A DNA stretch of 45,074 nt from Vulcanimicrobiaceae bacterium (GTDB lineage: Bacteria > Vulcanimicrobiota > Vulcanimicrobiia > Vulcanimicrobiales > Vulcanimicrobiaceae): the NCBI GenBank assembly GCA_046262595.1, contig JBHEMM010000019.1, positions 1 through 45,074 on the forward strand, given 5' to 3'. The notes under the pieces were generated by a model that ran no database searches, had not been told where the DNA came from, and worked only from the letters and a program-made list of their open reading frames with translations. The first letter of the stretch is position 1. Each line of letters opens with the position of its first letter. The position numbers were made by a program, and so were the translations under genes. Below, piece after piece: positions 4,815 through 35,775 of this stretch.

Positions 4815-5785
4815 TGCGGAGCGCAGACGATGTGCTGCGCGAAGCGACCGGAAAAACGTTCACCGCGGCCGTCGCCCGCGTCGAACATCGCGGCGTGCCG
4901 GTTTTCGAGCGCGCGTACGGCGTAACGCGGCAAGACTCCGGCGCCCGGGCGGTCTATGCGGACACCGCGTTCGACTTGGCGTCCATCACGAAGTTGTTTG
5001 TCGCGACGCTCGCATTGCGTGCGGTGCAGGACGGCACGCTGGCGCTCGACGTTCCGGTGCTGCACGAGGGCATTACGCTGCGCATGCTGCTCTCGCATAC
5101 GGCCGGCATCAACTCGGGCGCGGATTACCGTCAGCTGCTCGGGCACAACGTTGTTGCTTTCGCGAACGCGCGCGAGCTGGTGGCGCGCCCGGGTGAGCGC
5201 GTGATTTACAGCGATCTCGGTTTCATCGCTTTGGGCGATTTGCTCGAACGCAGCTACGGATGTTCGCTTGATGCGCTGATGCGCGGCTTGCGGCGTTCGC
5301 CGTTTTTTCGTCCGCGCGCCGCACAAAAAATGCAGATCCCGGCGACGGAAGAAGACGCCTGGCGCGGCCGCGTGCAAGGCGCCGTACACGACGAAAAGGC
5401 CCACTTGCTGGGCGGCATTGCCGGGCACGCCGGACTTTTCGGCACGGCATCGGATGTCGCGTGGCTTACCGAGCAATACCTTGGCCCGCTCAACGGCCGG
5501 ACGCACGACACGCTCCATACGGAACTGGTGCGCGAAGCGGTGAGCGAACAAGCCGATGATCCCGTCCTGCGCCGCGGTTTAGGGTGGGCCCTCAAGACGA
5601 GCGACGAAAATTCGTGCGGACGTTTCTTTTCGCGCGACTCGTTCGGGCACACAGGATTTGTCGGCACGTGCGTGTGGGCCGATCCGGTGCGCGACTGCTG
5701 CGCGGTGCTGCTCACGAACAGCGTGTACTTCGGCCGCAGCGATACCCGGGATCTGCGCGCCGCGTTCTACGATGCGGCCGTTGCG
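4814..5785 (+). CDS. Serine hydrolase, beta-lactamase family (AmiE-like amidase); 3' end falls in the N gap
   Basis: FDLASITK (SxxK), LLSHTAG, YSD, GxVHDE, GHAGLF, FGHTGF; GTG start overlaps the nagZ stop. Confidence 0.85.
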
Positions 5786-5795
5786 NNNNNNNNNN

Positions 5796-6840
5796 ACTGG
5801 TCCGGCTGCGGCCTCAGGGCGATCGCTATCAGATCGATCTGCTGAACTTTGCCACCGTGCCGTTCGATGATGCGCTGCAGCGCGTGCTGCACGAGGCACT
5901 GCCTCCGCACGCAGGCACGTTGGCGCAAACGGCGCAGCTGCACCAGCTGCTGGGGCGGGCGTTCGCAAAAGCTGCGCTGCACGTGCGCGGCGACATGCCG
6001 CTCGATTACGTCGCCTCGCACGGCCAAACGCTTTATCACGACGGCGATGCGCACCGCACGCTGCAGGCCGGCGATCCGTTCATCATCCGGGATGCGGCAC
6101 AGTGCACGGTGTGCTTCGACTTCCGCAGCGCCGATTGCGCGGCGGGCGGCCAGGGCGCGCCGCTCGTGCCGTACGTGGACGCGCTGCTCTTCGCCGATAC
6201 TGCCGAACACCGCGTTGCCGTGAACATCGGCGGCATTGCCAATCTCACCGTGCTGCAAGCCGGCTCGCCGTCGTCCGGTGTGCTCGCCTTTGACAGCGGG
6301 CCGGGCAACATGCTCATCGATGCGCTCGTGCGGGAGCGCACGCGCGGCGCGCAGCACTACGATGGCANNNNNNNNNNTCGCTACTTCGCGCAGCCGCCGC
6401 CGAAAAGCACCGGACGCGAGCATTTCGGCGCGCAGTTTCTGCGCGAGCATGCGGCGCTTCTCGATCCGCTCAGCCTGCAGGATGCCGCGGCGACGCTGGC
6501 CGCTTTGACGGCGGCTTCTTTGGCGAACGCGATCGGCGCCAACGCTCCGCAGGGCGCCCGCGTTCTGGTGAGCGGCGGTGGAGCACATAATGCGTGCCTC
6601 ATGGGCTTACTGGAGCGCGATCTTCGCGGTTACACGGTTCAGCATTCGAGCGCGCTCAACGTGCACGGCGACGCCAAAGAAGCCGTTGCGTTCGCAGTTC
6701 TGGGCTACGAGTTGCTGCGCGAGCGCGCCGCAAACGTTCCCCGCGTGACCGGCGCAAGCGGCCCGGTCTTGCTGGGCGCGCTCGCGCCGCATGATTTGCT
6801 CTCGCTGCTCGCAAAAGTGCACACGGAATGCCGGACGTAA
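5796..6840 (+). CDS. anmK: Anhydro-N-acetylmuramic acid kinase (5' end lost in a gap, internal gap 6368-6377)
   Basis: SHGQT, DFRSAD-x3-GGQGAPLVP, NIGGIAN, DSGPGN, PPKSTGRE, GGGAHN, KEAVAFA motifs. Confidence 0.92.
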
Positions 6841-8620: not shown

Positions 8621-10125
8621 TTGCGTTCGTTCTTGCGCTGATAACGTTCGTGCCGCTCGACGATCGGCCCGTCACGCGCCAGTTGCCGCAGATGCTCGCG
8701 CAGATTGCCGGCGAACGTCTGATCGAGCCGCCGCGCCGACTGCTTGGCAATTACCTCAGCTTCGGCAAACCCGACGCGATCGCGGCGTGGCTGAACGGTG
8801 CGCAGCCGCGCGCATCCGGCGCCTTCGTCATTTCCACCGATATGCTCGCATACGGCGGCCTCGTCGCCTCGCGCGTTCCCGGCGTCACTTATGCCGATGC
8901 GTTTTACCGCCTGGGCGAACTCACGCATTTGCGCGCGCGCCATCCGCATGCGTGGATCGGCGCGTTCGGGACCGTGATGCGCCTCGCGCCGACCGGCGTT
9001 CCTTCGCTCGGATCGGCGGCACAATTTTTTGCCGCGTACCCCGCGTGGGACTACTTGCAGCAGTATGCGAACCTGCACGATCCGCCGCTCCGAAGCGAAC
9101 TGGCGCTCGCGCAACAGCTCAGATCCCTCGTTGGAGAGCCGCTGCTGCAGGCCTATCTGCAGACACGCGCGCGCAACTTGAGCGTCGATCTGCACGAAAT
9201 CGGTCTCGCGCGCGCAAGCGGCTTGAATGCACTCGCGCTCGGGCAGGACGATGCCGGCCCATACGGGCTGCACCTCAAAGACGTCTCGGCGCTGCAGCAA
9301 GCGGCAGCGCAAATGCCCGGACGCATCGCCATCGAACCGGGCGCCGACGAATTAGGAATGGCGATGGTGGCCCACGCGCTTGCGCGCAGCGTGCATTGGT
9401 TTCCGTCGGTGGCCGTGCATTATTATCCCGCAGCGGGCGGCTCGATCAACGATCCGCTGGAGTATGCGCCCATCGACGTAGCCGTCGGCTCACTTATCAC
9501 GCTCTGCGGCGCTGTGCGCACGCAGGGGCCCGCCGACATTCACCTGTACGTGCGCGCGCCGGGATCGAACGCGCAGGACGATGCCGCGCTCCAGCAGGCG
9601 CTGCAGGCAGACGAGACGGCGGGCGACTCCGTGGCGTTCGCCGATCTGACGTTCTTGGAAGATTCGTTCGCCAGTCAAGCGCGCTTCGCTGAGTCACTGC
9701 TTGCCGGCGGCCTGGCTTCGAAGCTCGACGCGTATTCGTCGTGGAACACGAATGCGAATACGGTGGGCACGGCGATCGCAGAAGCGGTCGCCGCCGGCGC
9801 CGGACGGCGCAGCCACCGTTACGACGCGTTGGCGCACAAGACGTTCACGTTCAACCGCATCGTGGACGACTATGCGTTCCACGATTACGTTCGCCCCGAT
9901 CTCAACGCGTGGCTGAGCTCGCAAGGTATCGCCGACCATACGTATCTCTTGCCGGGACCGGCGGCACAGGCCGCATCGCGCAACGGCGCGGAACTGTTCG
10001 CGCGCGCTGCCGCATTACTGCCGCACCTCTATCCGGGCTATCACATCGCCGCAATGCAAATTACGCTGCCGTGGAACCGGACGTTCGAAACCGAAATCGA
10101 CGCAGCGCTGGCGCCGCGGCTTTAG
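8617..10125 (+). CDS. DUF4127-like secreted protein
   Basis: PLDDRP, DMLAYGGLVASR, GQDD, PGADE, WNTxANTxG motifs recalled for DUF4127. Confidence 0.7.
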   Translation: MIAFVLALITFVPLDDRPVTRQLPQMLAQIAGERLIEPPRRLLGNYLSFGKPDAIAAWLNGAQPRASGAFVISTDMLAYGGLVASRVPGVTYADAFYRLGELTHLRARHPHAWIGAFGTVMRLAPTGVPSLGSAAQFFAAYPAWDYLQQYANLHDPPLRSELALAQQLRSLVGEPLLQAYLQTRARNLSVDLHEIGLARASGLNALALGQDDAGPYGLHLKDVSALQQAAAQMPGRIAIEPGADELGMAMVAHALARSVHWFPSVAVHYYPAAGGSINDPLEYAPIDVAVGSLITLCGAVRTQGPADIHLYVRAPGSNAQDDAALQQALQADETAGDSVAFADLTFLEDSFASQARFAESLLAGGLASKLDAYSSWNTNANTVGTAIAEAVAAGAGRRSHRYDALAHKTFTFNRIVDDYAFHDYVRPDLNAWLSSQGIADHTYLLPGPAAQAASRNGAELFARAAALLPHLYPGYHIAAMQITLPWNRTFETEIDAALAPRL

Positions 10126-30398: not shown

Positions 30399-30407
30399 CG
30401 GGGCCGC

Positions 30408-30462
30408 TTGATGACTCCTTGATGGCAGAGGAGCGTGATTTTTGATGACATTTTTATGGCCG
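30408..30462. promoter_or_regulatory. Tandem operator-like repeats TTGATGAC-N6-ATGGC upstream of the WYL gene
   Basis: TTGATGACtccttgATGGC (30408-30426) and TTGATGACatttttATGGC (30442-30460); pseudo-palindromic TGACW-N6-TGGCM. Confidence 0.55.
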
Positions 30463-30479
30463 GGGACCGGCGCATAGTG

Positions 30480-30491
30480 CCACAATTGTGG
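30480..30491. promoter_or_regulatory. Perfect palindrome CCACAATTGTGG overlapping a putative extended -10 (TGcCACAAT) of a leaderless WYL transcript
   Basis: 12-bp palindrome ending just before ATG 30493; no Shine-Dalgarno. Confidence 0.5.
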
Positions 30492-30492
30492 T

Positions 30493-31488
30493 ATGGAACG
30501 CACGAACGAGCCGAAGATTGTGTTGCTGGTCCGGCTGCTCAACGCGATTGACGAAGGCCGCTTTTCGTTCGAAGAACTTAAAGACCGCATTGCCGAGGGA
30601 GAACACAAGCCGAGCACGCGCAGCCTGCGCCGCTATTTGGCAGTGCTTGCGGACGCGGGCTTCCCGTGGTACTTCGATCGCGCCACCAACACGTACCGGT
30701 TTACCGAAGGTTACAGCCTCAAACGCCTGGAGCTCAACAGCAGCGAACTGTTCGGTCTGGTCGCGCTGCGCGCCATCAGCGCCAGTTTGAAGGGCGCCAT
30801 CGGCACGTACGTTGACGAAGTGACCGCCAAGATCGTTGGCTCGAGCGGCAGCGGGGCGAAGGAACGGTTGCAGGCGCCCTCGCCGGTCGCGTTCCGCCTG
30901 AGCGAGATCGCGCTGGATGTGCAGGGAGAACAGATATTCAGCCGTCTCTCCTCGGCCGAACGCAGTTCGCGCAGTGTGCGGTTCCAATACCAGGACAAAG
31001 AAGGCAATACGTCCACGCGCACGGCCGACCCCTACGGCTTTGTCGTGGGCGGCGGACGCGTGTACTGCGTGGCGCACGATCGCGACCGGCGCGGCATGCG
31101 GACGTTCGCGGTCGACAACATGACCGACCTCACGGTGCTGGCGCAGACGTTTACCAAGCCGCAAAATTTCAGCGTCGAAGACTTTGCCTCGAGCTCGATC
31201 AGCGGCGTGCTGCACAGTTCGCAAACCGCGGAAGTGCGCGTGCGGTTCGCACCGCGCGTCGCGAAGGCGGCAATCGCCGCGCGCGTCGTGGCGGATCGCG
31301 CCGTGAGCCGATCGGCCGACGGTTCGGTCGAGATAACGTACACCGTCGCGGACGTTGACGAACTGACGCGCTGGGTTTTGGGTTGGGGCGCACAGGCCGA
31401 GATCGTGGCGCCGGCGGAAGCACGCGCCAAAGTCCAGATGCTCATCTCCGAGATCGCGACGAAGTACGAACTTCCGGTCTCGCGCTAA
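30493..31488 (+). CDS. HTH-WYL-WCX transcriptional regulator (YafY/PafB/DriD-like) with a non-canonical WYL motif
   Basis: N-terminal wHTH (STRSLRRYLAVL...GFP), WYL core VRFQY...RTADPYG...VYCVAHD...RTFAVDNM, WCX end WVLGWG...EIVAP. Confidence 0.9.
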   Translation: MERTNEPKIVLLVRLLNAIDEGRFSFEELKDRIAEGEHKPSTRSLRRYLAVLADAGFPWYFDRATNTYRFTEGYSLKRLELNSSELFGLVALRAISASLKGAIGTYVDEVTAKIVGSSGSGAKERLQAPSPVAFRLSEIALDVQGEQIFSRLSSAERSSRSVRFQYQDKEGNTSTRTADPYGFVVGGGRVYCVAHDRDRRGMRTFAVDNMTDLTVLAQTFTKPQNFSVEDFASSSISGVLHSSQTAEVRVRFAPRVAKAAIAARVVADRAVSRSADGSVEITYTVADVDELTRWVLGWGAQAEIVAPAEARAKVQMLISEIATKYELPVSR

Positions 31489-31500
31489 ACGGACATACAT

Positions 31501-31535
31501 CAAAAACCCCGATGACTTTTACGTCACCGGGGTTT
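31501..31535 (-). terminator. Intrinsic terminator of ncRNA copy 1 (may also weakly terminate the convergent WYL gene)
   Basis: 13-bp stem AAACCCCGGUGAC/GUCAUCGGGGUUU running into U5; the single A-C mismatch on + is a G.U pair on -. Confidence 0.8.
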
Positions 31536-31697
31536 GAACGTATTCGCCGGTTTGCGCCTGTCAGAATTCCGGTAAAAGAAATCGACTGACGCCGCCGTAC
31601 GTTTGGCCGGCTCACTCGGGACCGCGGCTTTCACCGCTGTCCGTCAACATGTTCCGGTTGCGGCTTTTACGTTTGCCGCCCTTCAATCGCTTGAAGT
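31501..31697 (-). ncRNA. Putative structured ncRNA, copy 1 (~197 nt, family not recognised)
   Basis: Own promoter and terminator; collinear conserved blocks and compensatory stems shared with copy 2; no conserved ORF. Confidence 0.75.
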
Positions 31698-31703
31698 TCT
31701 TGC

Positions 31704-31732
31704 ATGGTATCATCCGGAAAATCACTTTGCAA
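31704..31732 (-). promoter_or_regulatory. Sigma70-type promoter of ncRNA copy 1
   Basis: TTGCAA (31732-31727), 17-bp spacer, TG-a-TACCAT (-10 at 31709-31704). Confidence 0.75.
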
Positions 31733-31852
31733 GAGCGCGATGCAGCGACTCACAGCATATGCACAAAAACTTTCAGTTGTTCGCCGTTTGTGCACTCGGC
31801 GGAGCGCGCTCCTCAATTCGCGATTACTCACACGTTGTGCACGCAGGTGCAT

Positions 31853-31890
31853 AAAAAAACAGAAGCCCCGAATGTTCATCCGGAGCTTCC
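31853..31890 (-). terminator. Intrinsic terminator of ncRNA copy 2
   Basis: Stem GGAAGCUCCGGAU/AUUCGGGGCUUCU followed by G-U7; three A-C mismatches on + are G.U pairs on -. Confidence 0.85.
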
Positions 31891-32053
31891 GGCGTATGTC
31901 TTTCTCGCTCGTGCCTGTTTGGCTCCGGTGAAGAAACCCTACTGACCACCGCTTGAAAGTCCGGCCGTTTCACTCGTATCGCCGTCATGCGGCTGCATCG
32001 TCAACATGGCCCGGCCGCGACGACACGTTCGCCGCACTTCGTTTCATCGAAGT
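31853..32053 (-). ncRNA. Putative structured ncRNA, copy 2 (~201 nt, paralog of copy 1)
   Basis: Same block order as copy 1: ACUUC hairpin, GCGGC hairpin, CCGG, CAUGUUGACG, CGAGUGA, GUCAGU, ACCGGA, ACAGGCRC, AUACG, terminator. Confidence 0.75.
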
Positions 32054-32059
32054 GTCTGA

Positions 32060-32088
32060 ATGGTAGCACCGTACAAATGTCGTAGCAA
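32060..32088 (-). promoter_or_regulatory. Sigma70-type promoter of ncRNA copy 2
   Basis: TTGCTA (32088-32083), 17-bp spacer, TG-c-TACCAT (-10 at 32065-32060). Confidence 0.75.
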
Positions 32089-32140
32089 GTAGCCGGGTGC
32101 CGTTTCCACCGCATTTCCACAAGAAAGACGCGTTATTCAC

Positions 32141-32572
32141 ATGGTTATACACCTGCTTGCTCTGTTGCTCGCTCAAAGCATGTTCGCCGGTCTTCCTGTC
32201 GACGGTATCCGATGCGATTCGATGGAAGGTGCGCTCGAACACATCCACGCGCATTTGAAAATTACGGATGGCGGCCGCGCGCTGGAAATCCCCTCGGGCA
32301 TCGGGATTCCGCAGGGCGGCCAGTGCCTGTACTGGCTGCATACGCATTCGTCCGACGGCCTCGTGCACATCGAGTCGCCGCTGAAGAAGACGTTTAGGCT
32401 GGGGCAATTCTTCGACATCTGGGGGGAGCCGCTGAGCCGCACGCAGGCCGCAGGAGCGCATGCGTCGCGAGGCCACGCGCTGCGCGTGACCGTCAACGGA
32501 AAAGCCTGGAAAGGCGACCCGCGCACCATTCCGTTACGTGACCATGAGGAGATCGTCATCAACGGCTCATAA
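32141..32572 (+). CDS. Secreted hypothetical protein with His-rich putative metal-binding motifs
   Basis: Signal peptide, HIHAHL, IP-x-GIG, CLYWLHTH-x2-DG-x2-HIES, LGQFFDIWG. Confidence 0.75.
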   Translation: MVIHLLALLLAQSMFAGLPVDGIRCDSMEGALEHIHAHLKITDGGRALEIPSGIGIPQGGQCLYWLHTHSSDGLVHIESPLKKTFRLGQFFDIWGEPLSRTQAAGAHASRGHALRVTVNGKAWKGDPRTIPLRDHEEIVINGS

Positions 32573-32581
32573 GGTATCCGC

Positions 32582-34126
32582 ATGGCAACTACCGCCGCCG
32601 CCATCGAACTCGACGGCAAACACCTCACCCTGCAGGCGATCCGCGCCATCGCTCAAGACGGCGCAACCGTCGCGATCACCGCCGGCGCGCGAGCACGCGT
32701 TGCCGCGGCGCGCGCGCTGGTCGACGAAAAATTCGGTTTAGGCGATGCGATTTACGGCGTGACGACCGGCTTCGGCCGCTTGGCGAACATTCGGGTCGAA
32801 CCGCACGATGCAAACCTCCTCCAGCTCAACCTCGTGCGCAGCCACGCCGCCGGCACGGGCGAGCCGCTGAGCATTCCGCATGTCCGCGCCGCGGGCGTCC
32901 TGCGCGCTAGTTCGCTGGCGGCCGGTCACTCGGGGATCCGCGAGAGCACCCTCGATCTGCTCGTCGGGCTGCTCAACCGGGGCGTCACGCCCGTGGTTCC
33001 GCGCCAGGGATCCGTCGGCGCCAGCGGCGATCTGGCGCCCCTGGCGCACATGACGTTGACGCTTATCGGCGAGGGCGAAGCATTTTATCAAAGTGAGCGC
33101 ATGCCGAGCGCCGTTGCGCTGCAGCGCGCGGGCCTGCAGCCGATCGAGCTGGGTGCAAAAGAAGGACTGGCGCTCGTAAACGGTACTGAGGTGATGACCG
33201 GCATCGCCGCCTTGTGCCAGCTGCGCGCCGAACGCCTTTTGGCGAGCGCCGACGTGATCGGCGCCATGTCGCTCGAAGCGTTTTTAGGAACGGACCGCGT
33301 GTTCGACCGGCGCATCAACGCACTGCGTCCGCATCCGGGTCAAGCACGCGTCGCCGACAATCTTCGCGCATTGTTGAGCGGTTCTCAAATTATCGAATCG
33401 CACCGCGAATGCGGACGCGTGCAAGATCCGTATTCGTACCGCTGCATTCCCGTGGTGCATGGCACCGTGCGCGACGCCGCGGCGCATGCGCGCCGCGTCA
33501 TCGAAATTGAGGCAATCTCCGTTACCGATAACCCGCTGGTTTTCCCGGAAGACGGCGAATTTTTGAGCGGCGGCAACTTCCACGGCCAGCCCATCGCGCT
33601 CGCATCCGATCTGTTGAAAATTGCGCTTGCGGAACTGGCCGGTATCAGCGAACGGCGTCTCTATCTGCTGCTCAATGCGGAAGAGCGCGGCCTGCCGCTG
33701 TTTCTCACGGGACGCTCGGGCTTGCAGTCCGGCTTGATGATCGTGCAGTACACCTCGGCGGCACTCGTCTCGGAAAATAAAGGCCTGGCATGGCCGAACA
33801 GCGTCGATTCGATTCCCACCTCGGCCGGCCAAGAGGATCATGTGAGCATGGGCATGACGGCGGCGGTTCATTTGGACCGCGTGCTGGAGAACGTCGAAGG
33901 CTCGTTGGCCTGCGAGCTGCTCGGTGCGCTCGTTGCGACGGATTTTCGGCGTCCGCTCAAATCGGGCGCAGGAACGCAGGCCGCGTTCGACGTGGCGCGC
34001 GAACGCATTGCGCCCTGGAGCGACGACCGCATTCCGGCCCCGGATATCGAAGCCGCGCGAATGCTCATTCGTTCCGGCGCGATCGCACAGGCCGCGGAGT
34101 CGGCGATCGGAACGGAGCTCGTATGA
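32582..34126 (+). CDS. hutH: Histidine ammonia-lyase
   Basis: [19 protein letters not shown] (MIO-forming ASG), [31 protein letters not shown]. Confidence 0.96.
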
Positions 34127-35775
34127 TTGCCAAACCTCGCGCGGTGCGCGCGCCGCACGGCGCGCATCTGAGCTGCCAAGGCTGGCCGCAAGAAGCGGCG
34201 ATGCGCATGCTGATGAACAATTTGGATCCGGACGTTGCCGAACGTCCCGACGACTTGGTCGTGTACGGCGGTAACGGCCGCGCAGCACGCTCGTGGGACG
34301 CGTATGAGGCGATTATACGCACGCTGCGGCGCTTGCAGAACGACGAGACGCTGATCGTGCAAAGCGGCAAGCCGGTTGCAGTGTGGAAGACGCACGCGCG
34401 CGCGCCGCGCGTGCTCATCGCCAATTCGAATCTGGTGCCGAAATGGGCGGACTGGTCGATCTTCCGCGAACTCGAAGCGAACGGCCTCACGATGTACGGC
34501 CAGATGACGGCGGGATCGTGGATCTACATCGGATCGCAAGGCATCGTGCAGGGAACGTACGAGACGTTTGCGGAGCTCGCGCGCCAGCACTACGGCGGCT
34601 CGCTCAAAGGACGCGTTGCGCTCACTGCCGGTTGCGGCGGCATGGGCGGCGCGCAGCCGCTGGCGATCACGATGAACGAAGGCATTTGCCTGATCGTGGA
34701 CGTCGATCGCTCGCGTCTGGACCGCCGCGTTGAATTGCGTTATCTGGATAAAGTCGCGGACTCGCGCGAAGAAGCGCTGCGCGAAGTGCACGCCGCTCGC
34801 CGCGAAGGGCGTTCCGTTTCGATCGGATATGAAGGCAACGCCGGCGATGAGTTCTTGGCGCTCCATGCCGCCGGATTGCGTCCTGATGCCGTGACGGATC
34901 AAACCTCGTCGCACGACATGCTCAACGGCTACGTTCCCGCCGGCATGAGCCTGCAAGAGTGCGCCGCGCTGCGCGCGCAAGAGCCGGAGGAGTACGAGCG
35001 CCGCGCGTATGAGACGGTCGCGCGCCACGTGCGCGGCATGCTGGCATTTCTTAAAGACGGTGCGGTCGTTTTCGACTACGGCAACAATATTCGCGCGATG
35101 GCTCAGCGTGCCGGCGTGCAGAACGCGTTCGATTTCCCCGGCTTCGTACCCGCTTTCATCCGTCCGCTCTTTTGCAAAGGCAGCGGTCCGTTCCGCTTTG
35201 CAGCGCTCTCGGGCCATCCCCAGGACATCGCGCGGTGCGACCGCGAGCTGCTTGAGCTATTCCCGGACGACACGCACTTGCAACGTTGGATCACCATGGC
35301 GCAGGAACGCATCGCTTTCCAAGGACTGCCGGCGCGCATCTGCTGGCTCGGCTACGGCGACCGCGCGAAGGCGGGATTGCGTTTCAACGAACTGGTGCGC
35401 TCGGGCGAGCTCCGCGCGCCGATCGTCATCGGACGCGACCATCTGGACACGGGAAGCGTCGCATCGCCGTACCGCGAAACCGAAGCGATGAAAGACGGCA
35501 GCGACGCGATCGCGGATTGGCCGCTGCTCAACGCGCTGCTCAACACCGCTGCAGGTGCCCATTGGGTTTCGATCCACCACGGCGGGGGCGTCGGCATCGG
35601 CTACAGCACGCACGCCGGAATGGTGGTCGTTGCCGACGGGTCGGAAGATGCGCGCGAACGCTTGGAGTGCGTGCTTGCAACGGATTGCGGCATGGGCGTG
35701 GTTCGTCATGCCGATGCCGGCTATGAGATCGCAGTCGAAACGGCGGACGAAAAACACATCGACTGGCGGCTGTGA
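34123..35775 (+). CDS. hutU: Urocanate hydratase
   Basis: MNNLDP-x-[44 protein letters not shown]. Confidence 0.97.

Follow-up and report, generated by a model that had tools for sequence, protein, structure and literature searches.

The locus described here lies in a 45,074-nt stretch of DNA (hereafter the window) from a Vulcanimicrobiaceae bacterium, corresponding to positions 1 to 45,074 of contig JBHEMM010000019.1 in GenBank assembly GCA_046262595.1. The forward strand carries the gene of a 331-residue transcription factor of predicted helix-turn-helix (HTH)-WYL-WCX architecture at 30493–31488, with its stop codon at 31486–31488, and further downstream a small conserved gene, p143 (32141–32572). 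Between these genes, on the reverse strand and pointing towards the 3′ end of the WYL gene, lie two copies of a predicted structured RNA, designated units A and B. The unit A transcript spans 31499–31698 with a predicted 5′ end at about 31698–31702 and contains the helices P1 and P2, a mid-domain, P5, a pseudoknot and a terminator, while unit B spans 31853–32054 with its 5′ end predicted near 32054–32058. The two units, each about 200 nt long, can be aligned over about 300 columns and are paralogs. The U-tract of unit A ends at about 31499, leaving about 11–15 nt to the stop codon of the convergent WYL gene, in agreement with a first-pass annotation of this DNA that had placed the end of the RNA pair about 12 bp from that codon.

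Relatives of the units were first gathered by BLAST, and a covariance model (R1) was built from 14 copies from 7 genomes, all of them adjacent to a WYL gene. R1 matched the core of unit A at 31697–31539 (E 5e-36) and that of unit B at 32053–31893 (E 2e-37), and these were the only matches in the 2.4-Mb assembly that contains the window, a resemblance well above what chance would give. In the predicted fold P1 (ACUUC...GAAG) is followed by P2 (GCGGC...GCCGC), which has a conserved ACGU-containing loop, by a mid-domain with a CCGG-type closing helix and the conserved strands AUGUUGACG and CGAGUG, and by P5, a long irregular hairpin (GUCAGU...ACAGGC). A variable stretch and the segment AUACG then lead into the terminator, a GC-rich hairpin with a U-tract. 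The mid-domain is missing in the copies of G004, G023 and G012_b, so that the core consists of P1, P2, P5 and the pseudoknot. The intrinsic terminator of unit A (31504–31535) has 13-nt arms at 31504–31516 and 31523–31535 that are 92% complementary, a 6-nt loop and a U-tract at 31503–31499, and that of unit B (31891–31860) has a stem with 14 pairs followed by T7.

The pseudoknot, of about 6 bp, is predicted to form between the P2 loop and the segment abutting the 5′ side of the terminator. The 5′ strand of unit A is ACGUA (31668–31672, reverse strand), which pairs with UACGU (31538–31542) just 5′ of the terminator, and that of unit B is CGUGU (32023–32027, reverse strand), which pairs with AUACG (31893–31897). 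The single-stranded stretch that links P5 to the 3′ strand of the pseudoknot reads AAACCGGCGA in unit A (31553–31544) and GAGCGAGAAAGAC in unit B (31910–31898); both were found where the first-pass annotation had located variable segments, between ACAGGCRC and AUACG. The segment differs among paralog types and is partly kept among orthologous copies, for example as AUGCGUGA in several genera.

The helices were examined in alignment A4 (32 related rows), which was fitted to the model and leans towards its structure, and in which 95.6% of helix cells were paired compared with 87.8% after shuffling. Seventeen pairs were changed on both sides, compared with 7.2 in the shuffles, and none of 500 shuffles was as high; slid registers gave 35–46% paired cells. 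For the pseudoknot a table of 44 copies was prepared from sequence anchors, five of them placed by hand and two rows (G014_a and G019) mis-anchored but kept in, which gave 221 of 264 core cells paired compared with a permutation mean of 190 (sd 4.3). None of 2000 permutations reached this value and slid registers paired only 31–107 core cells. Three to four Watson-Crick pair types occur at four positions of the pseudoknot, and the two strands co-vary as ACGUA/UACGU, ACGUAU/AUACGU, ACGUG/CACGU, GCGUAGC/GCUACGU and UGUA/UACA, with the further types GACGGUAU/AUACCGUC and GAUGGUAG/CUACCGUC in the family designated f2.

A search of Rfam 15 gave no match at the gathering thresholds in the window or in seven related loci, with only noise at E ≤ 10; the best sub-threshold match of the window, BTnc005, scored 19 bits where the gathering threshold is 174.8. 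The portions consulted of the literature on WYL proteins with small RNAs, and on structured noncoding RNAs with Eremiobacterota, held no description of this RNA, the supplements of motif-discovery studies lying outside their scope. Judged by covariation and database comparison, the units belong to a previously undescribed family of predicted structured RNA. Leader RNAs with a terminator are a known kind of element; new here are the RNA family, the promoter dedicated to it and the tail-to-tail arrangement with the WYL gene.

Every unit, including those in tandem arrays, is preceded by a predicted promoter of its own. In unit A (31701–31788, reverse strand) this consists of an upstream element at 31746–31788 with three TGTGRA-like direct repeats, a −35 box TTGCAA at 31727–31732 and a −10 box TACCAT at 31704–31709. 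The promoter of unit B (32058–32144, reverse strand) has its upstream element at 32104–32144, a −35 box TTGCTA at 32083–32088 and a −10 box TACCAT at 32060–32065, and abuts the start of the divergent p143 gene. The general pattern is one of TGTGRA repeats centred near −54, −65 and −85 (spacing 11 and 20 bp), a TTGC-type −35 box and a TACCAT-type −10 box, the two boxes lying 17 nt apart. Alignment A5 (33 copies) showed near-invariant GTG...TAA, TTGTG.A and TGTG blocks upstream of TTG(C), TA...T and the ACUUC start of P1. A scan with the sigma-70 consensus found no promoter at the units, so the −35 and −10 boxes were assigned from conservation in A5 alone. A promoter profile searched with nhmmer against the assembly of the window recovered the two RNA promoters only (E 1.5e-17 and 1.8e-16), the next match having an E-value of 0.52, and an exact-pattern search for the upstream element found none in G007 and G024, two genomes that lack the RNA. 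Pattern matches in the RNA-less genome G044, and an extra one in G009, were set aside as homologous coding sequence, lon-like by eye, and not promoters.

The distribution of the family was followed with R1 and with a second covariance model, R2, which covers the promoter, P1 and P2. R1 matched in 20 of 41 related genomes (19 of 24 in family f1, none of 5 in f2 and none of 11 in f3); the f2 genomes were found, through the promoter, to contain a diverged homolog of the RNA. R2 matched in 138 of the 151 genomes of an order sample. In a phylum sample, also of 151 genomes, the RNA was detected in 63 of 71 f1 genomes and in the one f2 genome, with one weak match among 79 genomes of other families, and the WYL gene in 69 of 71, one of one and none of 79, respectively. 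The RNA family was found in one bacterial order only. Among the genomes counted are some flagged as unpublished (G011, G022, G023, G036, G124, G152 and G169), and no conclusion depends on them.

An exact-pattern scan across GTDB returned 104 stretches, of which 80 were examined. Almost all of the 80 come from records titled Vulcanimicrobiota, Candidatus Eremiobacteraeota/Eremiobacteria, Baltobacteraceae, Ca. Cybelea, Tumulicola, Rubrimentiphilum, Aquilonibacter, Zemynaea or UBP12. R1 was applied to the 13 with other or uninformative titles and matched eight; the remaining five, titled Isosphaeraceae, Proteus, Fibrobacteria, Lachnospira and Prevotella, were dropped as chance matches, leaving 75 retained loci. 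Three of the eight matched loci, titled Binatia, Alphaproteobacteria and Rhodospirillales (L143, L165 and L200), carry a full WYL-RNA-p143 locus typical of the order, and their submitter labels may be wrong.

The gene context of the retained loci divides into two main groups, with 25 having a WYL gene within 1.5 kb and 46 having neither WYL nor p143 nearby. Of the latter, 40 carry a gene for an OPT oligopeptide transporter, which in every case is downstream of the RNA and on the same strand. The distance from the start of P1 to the inferred OPT start codon is 197–277 nt in 39 of the 40 loci. In the 20 loci that were read, the start codon lies about 15–65 nt past the terminator U-tract, and some of these spacers hold just an AAGG- or AAGGAG-like ribosome-binding site. 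A spacer of 15–65 nt leaves no room for a second promoter, so the OPT gene must be transcribed from the RNA promoter through the terminator. The OPT-type loci were matched by R1 at E-values of 1e-14 to 1e-19, and since R1 was built from WYL-adjacent copies only, the two groups of copies constitute one family.

Unlinked copies are also found immediately ahead of mutS, rpsU, a zf_Tbcl gene and a hydrolase-OPT pair, with RNA and gene in the same orientation, and two unlinked copies are convergent with a gene of no assigned function beside proline dehydrogenase. On the promoter side of the OPT leaders of L127, L133 and 30 further scan loci there are divergent nadA and nadB genes (quinolinate synthase and L-aspartate oxidase), and in L128 a gene of the prolyl-oligopeptidase family follows OPT.

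Linkage to the WYL gene was counted over 65 genomes with 112 strong hits, after three weak rows had been dropped. Within this set 71 hits lie on the same contig as the WYL gene and within 4 kb of it, 69 of them in convergent orientation, and 41 hits lie away from it. At least one WYL-adjacent unit is present in 59 of the 65 genomes, and further copies occur elsewhere in 31. The number of copies beside WYL is one in 51 genomes, two in five, three in two and four in one, a variation that the first-pass annotation had suggested looking for. Among the six genomes with no adjacent copy, the WYL gene is at a contig end in two, the RNA is 6–7 kb away in another two, one has no WYL match, and in G016 the RNA is 312 kb off. 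The link between RNA and WYL gene proposed in the first-pass annotation therefore stands in part: the adjacency in 59 of 65 genomes and the shared taxonomic range speak for it, and the 41 unlinked hits among 112 speak against it. Also against it, many copies are OPT leaders and the WYL gene occurs in genomes that have no RNA.

Several loci depart from the usual arrangement. Tandem arrays adjoin the WYL gene in genus g32, which has larger genomes, with four units at G077:C46:117022-118347 and three at G041:C1:1367857-1368774; in both, p143 is located between WYL and the RNA array. At G091:C6:325639-327601 there is an inverted duplication with the order RNA(+), WYL C-terminal fragment(−), WYL C-terminal fragment(+), RNA(−), an arrangement from which it is read that the RNA and the 3′ half of the WYL gene were duplicated as one block.

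The best explanation of these observations, advanced tentatively, is that the RNA is a new cis-acting, riboswitch-like attenuator, and that at the WYL locus its read-through would be antisense. Each unit would be self-contained, with a dedicated promoter, a folded RNA and a terminator that is read through conditionally, dependent on a ligand or factor. Since expression of OPT requires read-through, termination by the RNA is expected to be conditional. At the WYL locus the units aim at the 3′ end of the gene, where read-through under the same conditions would give RNA antisense to WYL; an effect of such antisense RNA on WYL is speculative. Units placed between WYL and p143 may in addition interrupt co-transcription from the one gene to the other. 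It is likely that the RNA constitutes a new attenuator family, and control of genes as a switch is a more likely role for it than partnership with the WYL protein alone, a dedicated WYL/RNA system being unlikely.

A number of points weigh against this explanation. Leader position was found in all 40 OPT loci and not in units A and B, which face the WYL 3′ end; in the genome of the window no RNA copy precedes an open reading frame (ORF), and the OPT gene of this genome lacks the leader. No antiterminator consistent among copies was found, either by eye or in a crude truncated-fold test that mis-detected many terminators. Tandem riboswitches rarely have a promoter for each unit, as the tandem arrays do here, whereas small RNA (sRNA) genes typically do. 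Because R2 includes the promoter, it would have missed copies that are driven by other promoters. At the WYL locus, the WYL ortholog is retained in all but one of the 13 order-sample genomes that lack the RNA, which means that WYL does not need input from the RNA, and G001 has one inverted copy that runs in the direction of WYL. All cases are from one order, and the conserved adjacency and convergence may therefore be inherited synteny; the counts over related genomes are not independent.

Two known kinds of control resemble the proposed attenuator. In Listeria monocytogenes a B12 riboswitch is reported, in the part of the source drawn on here, to control AspocR, which is made either as a terminated RNA of about 230 nt or as a long antisense RNA that lowers the pocR regulator (PMC8079631). 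The present locus is similar in having a structured RNA with a terminator downstream of, and convergent to, a regulator gene, with a unit of about 200 nt. It is different in that the RNA, without a match in Rfam, is of an unrelated family, the units are in tandem with promoters of their own, the regulator is a WYL protein and the read-through is inferred. A look for public sequencing runs over 30400–32700 of the window listed none. The OPT loci resemble terminating riboswitches and leader attenuators at transporter genes, where a covarying fold and pseudoknot are followed by a terminator and then by a same-strand ORF within tens of nucleotides. Unlike in leader attenuators, many copies, including the two in the window, have no downstream ORF, and an activator-type promoter element is present on every copy.

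In a rival reading the RNA and the WYL gene have no functional connection. The RNA would have entered the space between WYL and p143 once, in an ancestor of the order, and been passed on by descent, and a compact genome and the placement of the terminator would account for the close spacing. This is doubtful. In its favour, the RNA and the WYL clade occur in one order only, so that one event could explain all of the adjacency, WYL and p143 form the more basic pair in RNA-less genomes, and the RNA functions at loci with no WYL nearby. Against it, adjacency and convergence are kept down to about 47–50% WYL identity, while the BNR/sortilin gene upstream of WYL has counterparts there only in members of the same genus, and the inverted duplication in G091 carried WYL fragment and RNA together. 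A conditional terminator at OPT would also make transcription into WYL hard to avoid.

The protein encoded next to the RNA was analyzed using Pfam, which gave matches to the WYL domain (PF13280, E 6.6e-19, residues 148–215, above cut-off) and to the WCX extension (PF25583, E 2.5e-16, residues 246–321), and the PADLOC WYL model spans residues 11–309. No Pfam HTH model matched at E ≤ 0.001; chains of the PafB/PafC type align with the protein from residue 42 onward, and the N-terminal 75 residues, the predicted winged-HTH (wHTH) region, are the best-conserved part of an alignment of 21 orthologs. The HTH-WYL-WCX assignment made in the first-pass annotation for the gene at 30493–31488 is in keeping with the Pfam WYL and WCX matches. 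The closest solved structures are of the DriD type (9cu3, 9pfq and 8tp8, E about 1e-16), together with PafBC, and over the solved structures of the DriD/PafBC/DdaA class the E-values range from 3e-16 to 2e-9. An ortholog is present as a single copy in 149 of the 151 genomes of the order sample (E ≤ 1e-50). As judged from these comparisons the protein is a DriD/PafBC-type regulator and is not required for explaining the RNA.

In two loci the WYL ortholog is anomalous, matching in two frames or holding an in-frame TGA (L038 of G001, 5749–6730, and L041 of G014, 8775–9768), which is a possible frameshift or assembly error. Both genomes bear three RNA copies at the WYL locus, and G014 has a weak fourth RNA match on another contig.

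The presence of a transcription factor gene beside an RNA with its own promoter suggests a second reading, in which the RNA genes are switched on by the WYL protein through binding to the TGTGRA repeats and encode sibling base-pairing sRNAs that act in trans with the variable segment as seed. A short GC-rich seed, it may be noted, would find complements by chance. There are precedents in OxyR-OxyS, GcvA-GcvB and SgrR-SgrS, in which a transcription factor gene adjoins an sRNA under its control as a divergent pair sharing the control region; GcvB concerns peptide and amino-acid transport. The locus is like these pairs in that a regulator gene adjoins a short RNA gene with its own promoter and terminator, and unlike them in the convergent arrangement of its pair and in an RNA that is strongly folded and doubles as a leader of mRNAs. 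The reading gains from the promoter and terminator possessed by each of several paralogous units, from the adjacency of the conserved transcription factor gene in 59 of 65 genomes and from the variation of the segment between P5 and the pseudoknot among paralog types. The upstream element is confined to the RNA promoters in the assembly, its exact pattern was not found in the RNA-less G007 and G024, and neighbours concerned with amino-acid and peptide catabolism recur (hutH/hutU, proline dehydrogenase, OPT, SBP_bac_5 and peptidase S9).

The evidence from DNA recognition runs the other way. DriD, DdaA and BrxR dimers bind palindromes such as CGAC-N7-GTCG, according to the parts of the sources used here (PMC9186387, PMC13010146), whereas the element at the RNA promoters consists of direct repeats. 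The upstream repeat of the WYL gene itself is different, the OPT-leader context favours a role in cis, and a near-identical wHTH is kept in RNA-less genomes without the element. In G007 and G024, the two RNA-less genomes that were aligned, the wHTH is nearly unchanged and WYL is followed by convergent protein genes. Overall it is unlikely that the WYL protein and the RNAs form such a pair; for the RNA as a transcriptional target of WYL, which the first-pass annotation had listed, there is weak evidence for and against. Control of the RNA promoter by a transcription factor could be compatible with the attenuator explanation.

The region upstream of the WYL gene (30408–30488, forward strand) contains TTGATGRC / TTTATGGC direct repeats at 30408–30460 and an extended −10-like sequence, TGCCACAAT. 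The repeats TTGATGAC, TTGATGGC, TTTGATGAC and TTTATGGC are about 11 bp apart, and this motif differs from that of the RNA promoter; the TTTGATGSC repeats and a TGnCACAAT box are kept only in closer genera. A shared operator was considered on the basis of the palindrome CCACAATTGTGG (30477–30488), which resembled the TTGTGG of the RNA promoter, and was rejected, as the palindrome is not kept in orthologs. Before the WYL start, orthologs keep only the TGnCACAAT extended −10-like box and not the perfect palindrome CCACAATTGTGG. The TTTGATGSC repeats were likewise discarded as a link to the RNA, being present at WYL and on contig C65 only and not at RNA promoters. Contig C65, the sole other site of the repeat in the assembly of the window, has at about 5490–5640 a tRNA/tmRNA-like 3′ end (GGTTCGAGTCCC...CCA) with a terminator, followed by TTGATGGCGATTTGATGGCGGATGAAGGATGGCGATGG repeats and short hypothetical ORFs, and may represent the attachment region of an integrated element.

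The first-pass annotation had favoured a third reading, in which the WYL protein would use the RNA as a ligand, decoy or scaffold. Spelled out, the Sm-like WYL domain would bind a single-stranded part of the RNA and tandem copies would titrate or activate the protein, or the protein would modulate the terminator by sequestration of the EutV/EutX type. The residues of the WYL domain offer a lead here. In a low-identity pairwise alignment with DriD, the equivalents of five residues that contact single-stranded DNA (ssDNA), Tyr168, Arg178, Tyr192, Arg204 and Trp206, do not vary among the 21 orthologs and correspond to Y166, R176, Y191, R203 and F205 of the WYL protein. In the same alignment and orthologs the equivalents of DriD S172, R176, K202, R207, Y240 and R288 are not conserved. 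The position aligned to Tyr240 is Leu, Met or Ile in 20 of the 21 orthologs and His in one, and that aligned to Arg288 is Asp in 13 of 21. The section of PMC9186387 used here states that Tyr240 and Arg288 of DriD may clash with the RNA 2′-OH, and that DriD binds single-stranded RNA, but more weakly.

The invariance of the five contact positions, the replacement of the residues that may clash with 2′-OH, the weaker binding of RNA by DriD (both from the same partial source, PMC9186387) and the presence of one to four copies beside WYL are all consistent with binding of the RNA by the protein. They are offset by the low identity of the pairwise alignment from which the residue mapping was taken, by the ligands known for the class, which in the sources at hand are ssDNA and in one case c-di-GMP, and by the compact fold of the RNA, which leaves little single strand. 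Furthermore, WYL is kept in 12 of 13 RNA-less genomes, and many copies are far from WYL, as OPT leaders. A role of the RNA as ligand, decoy or scaffold therefore appears improbable. The fuller version, in which WYL is an RNA sensor whose pocket would bind the variable segment, tandem copies would titrate or charge the regulator and the protein would set read-through at the OPT leaders, is similarly a long shot. If it were true, the locus would hold a protein/RNA feedback pair of a kind undescribed for HTH-WYL-WCX factors, and an RNA-WYL interaction would widen the ligand range of WYL domains from ssDNA to a dedicated RNA.

Compared with DriD, PafBC and DdaA, which are activators of the DNA-damage response, the protein is alike in its WYL and WCX domains, in the five residues that align with ssDNA contacts and in its single-copy, near-universal gene; PafBC is likewise near-universal in actinobacteria. 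It differs from them in that no palindrome of the CGAC-N7-GTCG type was seen at the RNA promoters, in having p143 and not repair genes as its partner, and at positions 240 and 288. WYL1, the WYL-domain accessory protein of Cas13d, is reported to bind RNA in the portion available of PMC6547453. Unlike WYL1, the protein described here has a predicted HTH and a WCX extension, as transcription factors do. It is encoded in a window with no cas or defence genes, which sets it apart from WYL1 and from the defence regulators BrxR and CapW.

The gene on the other side of the RNA units, p143, begins at 32141 in the annotation used here and may instead begin at an alternative start at 32180. It is the first gene of a histidine-utilisation (hut) cluster in the window, followed by hutH (32582–34126, forward strand; Pfam Lyase_aromatic, 9.3e-189), hutU (34123–35775, forward strand; Urocanase domains, 1e-59 to 7e-92) and an amidohydrolase gene. 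Homologs of p143 were found in 147 of the 151 genomes of the order sample. The protein has no match in Pfam, NCBIfam or PADLOC and falls in unnamed clusters only in the protein atlas. An AF2 model (pLDDT 81) gave no match to a fold in the PDB at E ≤ 0.001, with just weak beta-grasp-like rows. In alignment A6 the residues C25, E29, H34, H36, C62, Y64, W65, H67, T68, H69, H76 and E78 are invariant, and p143 may be a metal-binding protein. The ORFs of the window are otherwise metabolic or housekeeping in character (a Clp ATPase, a BNR protein, hut genes and efflux genes), and neither cas nor defence genes were found among them.

In the RNA-less genomes G052, G044, G067, G139, G045 and G114, p143 lies on the same strand 3′ of WYL at a distance of roughly 0–100 nt, and the same arrangement, at a similar distance, is seen in G016, in which the RNA is elsewhere. 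As p143 follows WYL in these genomes, WYL and p143 are the core pair, and the RNA units have their place between them on the other strand. In the f2 genomes represented by L076, L081 and L083, WYL is followed on its strand, before the RNA terminator is reached, by a short Cys-rich ORF (CRLVVECLGCDGYHV-like); an aldehyde dehydrogenase gene lies ahead of the RNA in the orientation of the RNA, and p143 is about 2 kb from WYL.

The WYL clade is shown by this conservation to have a small partner protein, p143. The RNA family adds to a largely uncultured phylum a well-supported structured class, in which helices and a pseudoknot are combined with a terminator and a promoter of its own. Its position as a leader of OPT genes provides a regulatory handle and makes it an orphan riboswitch or attenuator candidate that is worth a ligand search. 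The locus in the window is in turn a concrete case of a candidate conditional terminator pointed at the 3′ end of a lineage-wide WYL gene.

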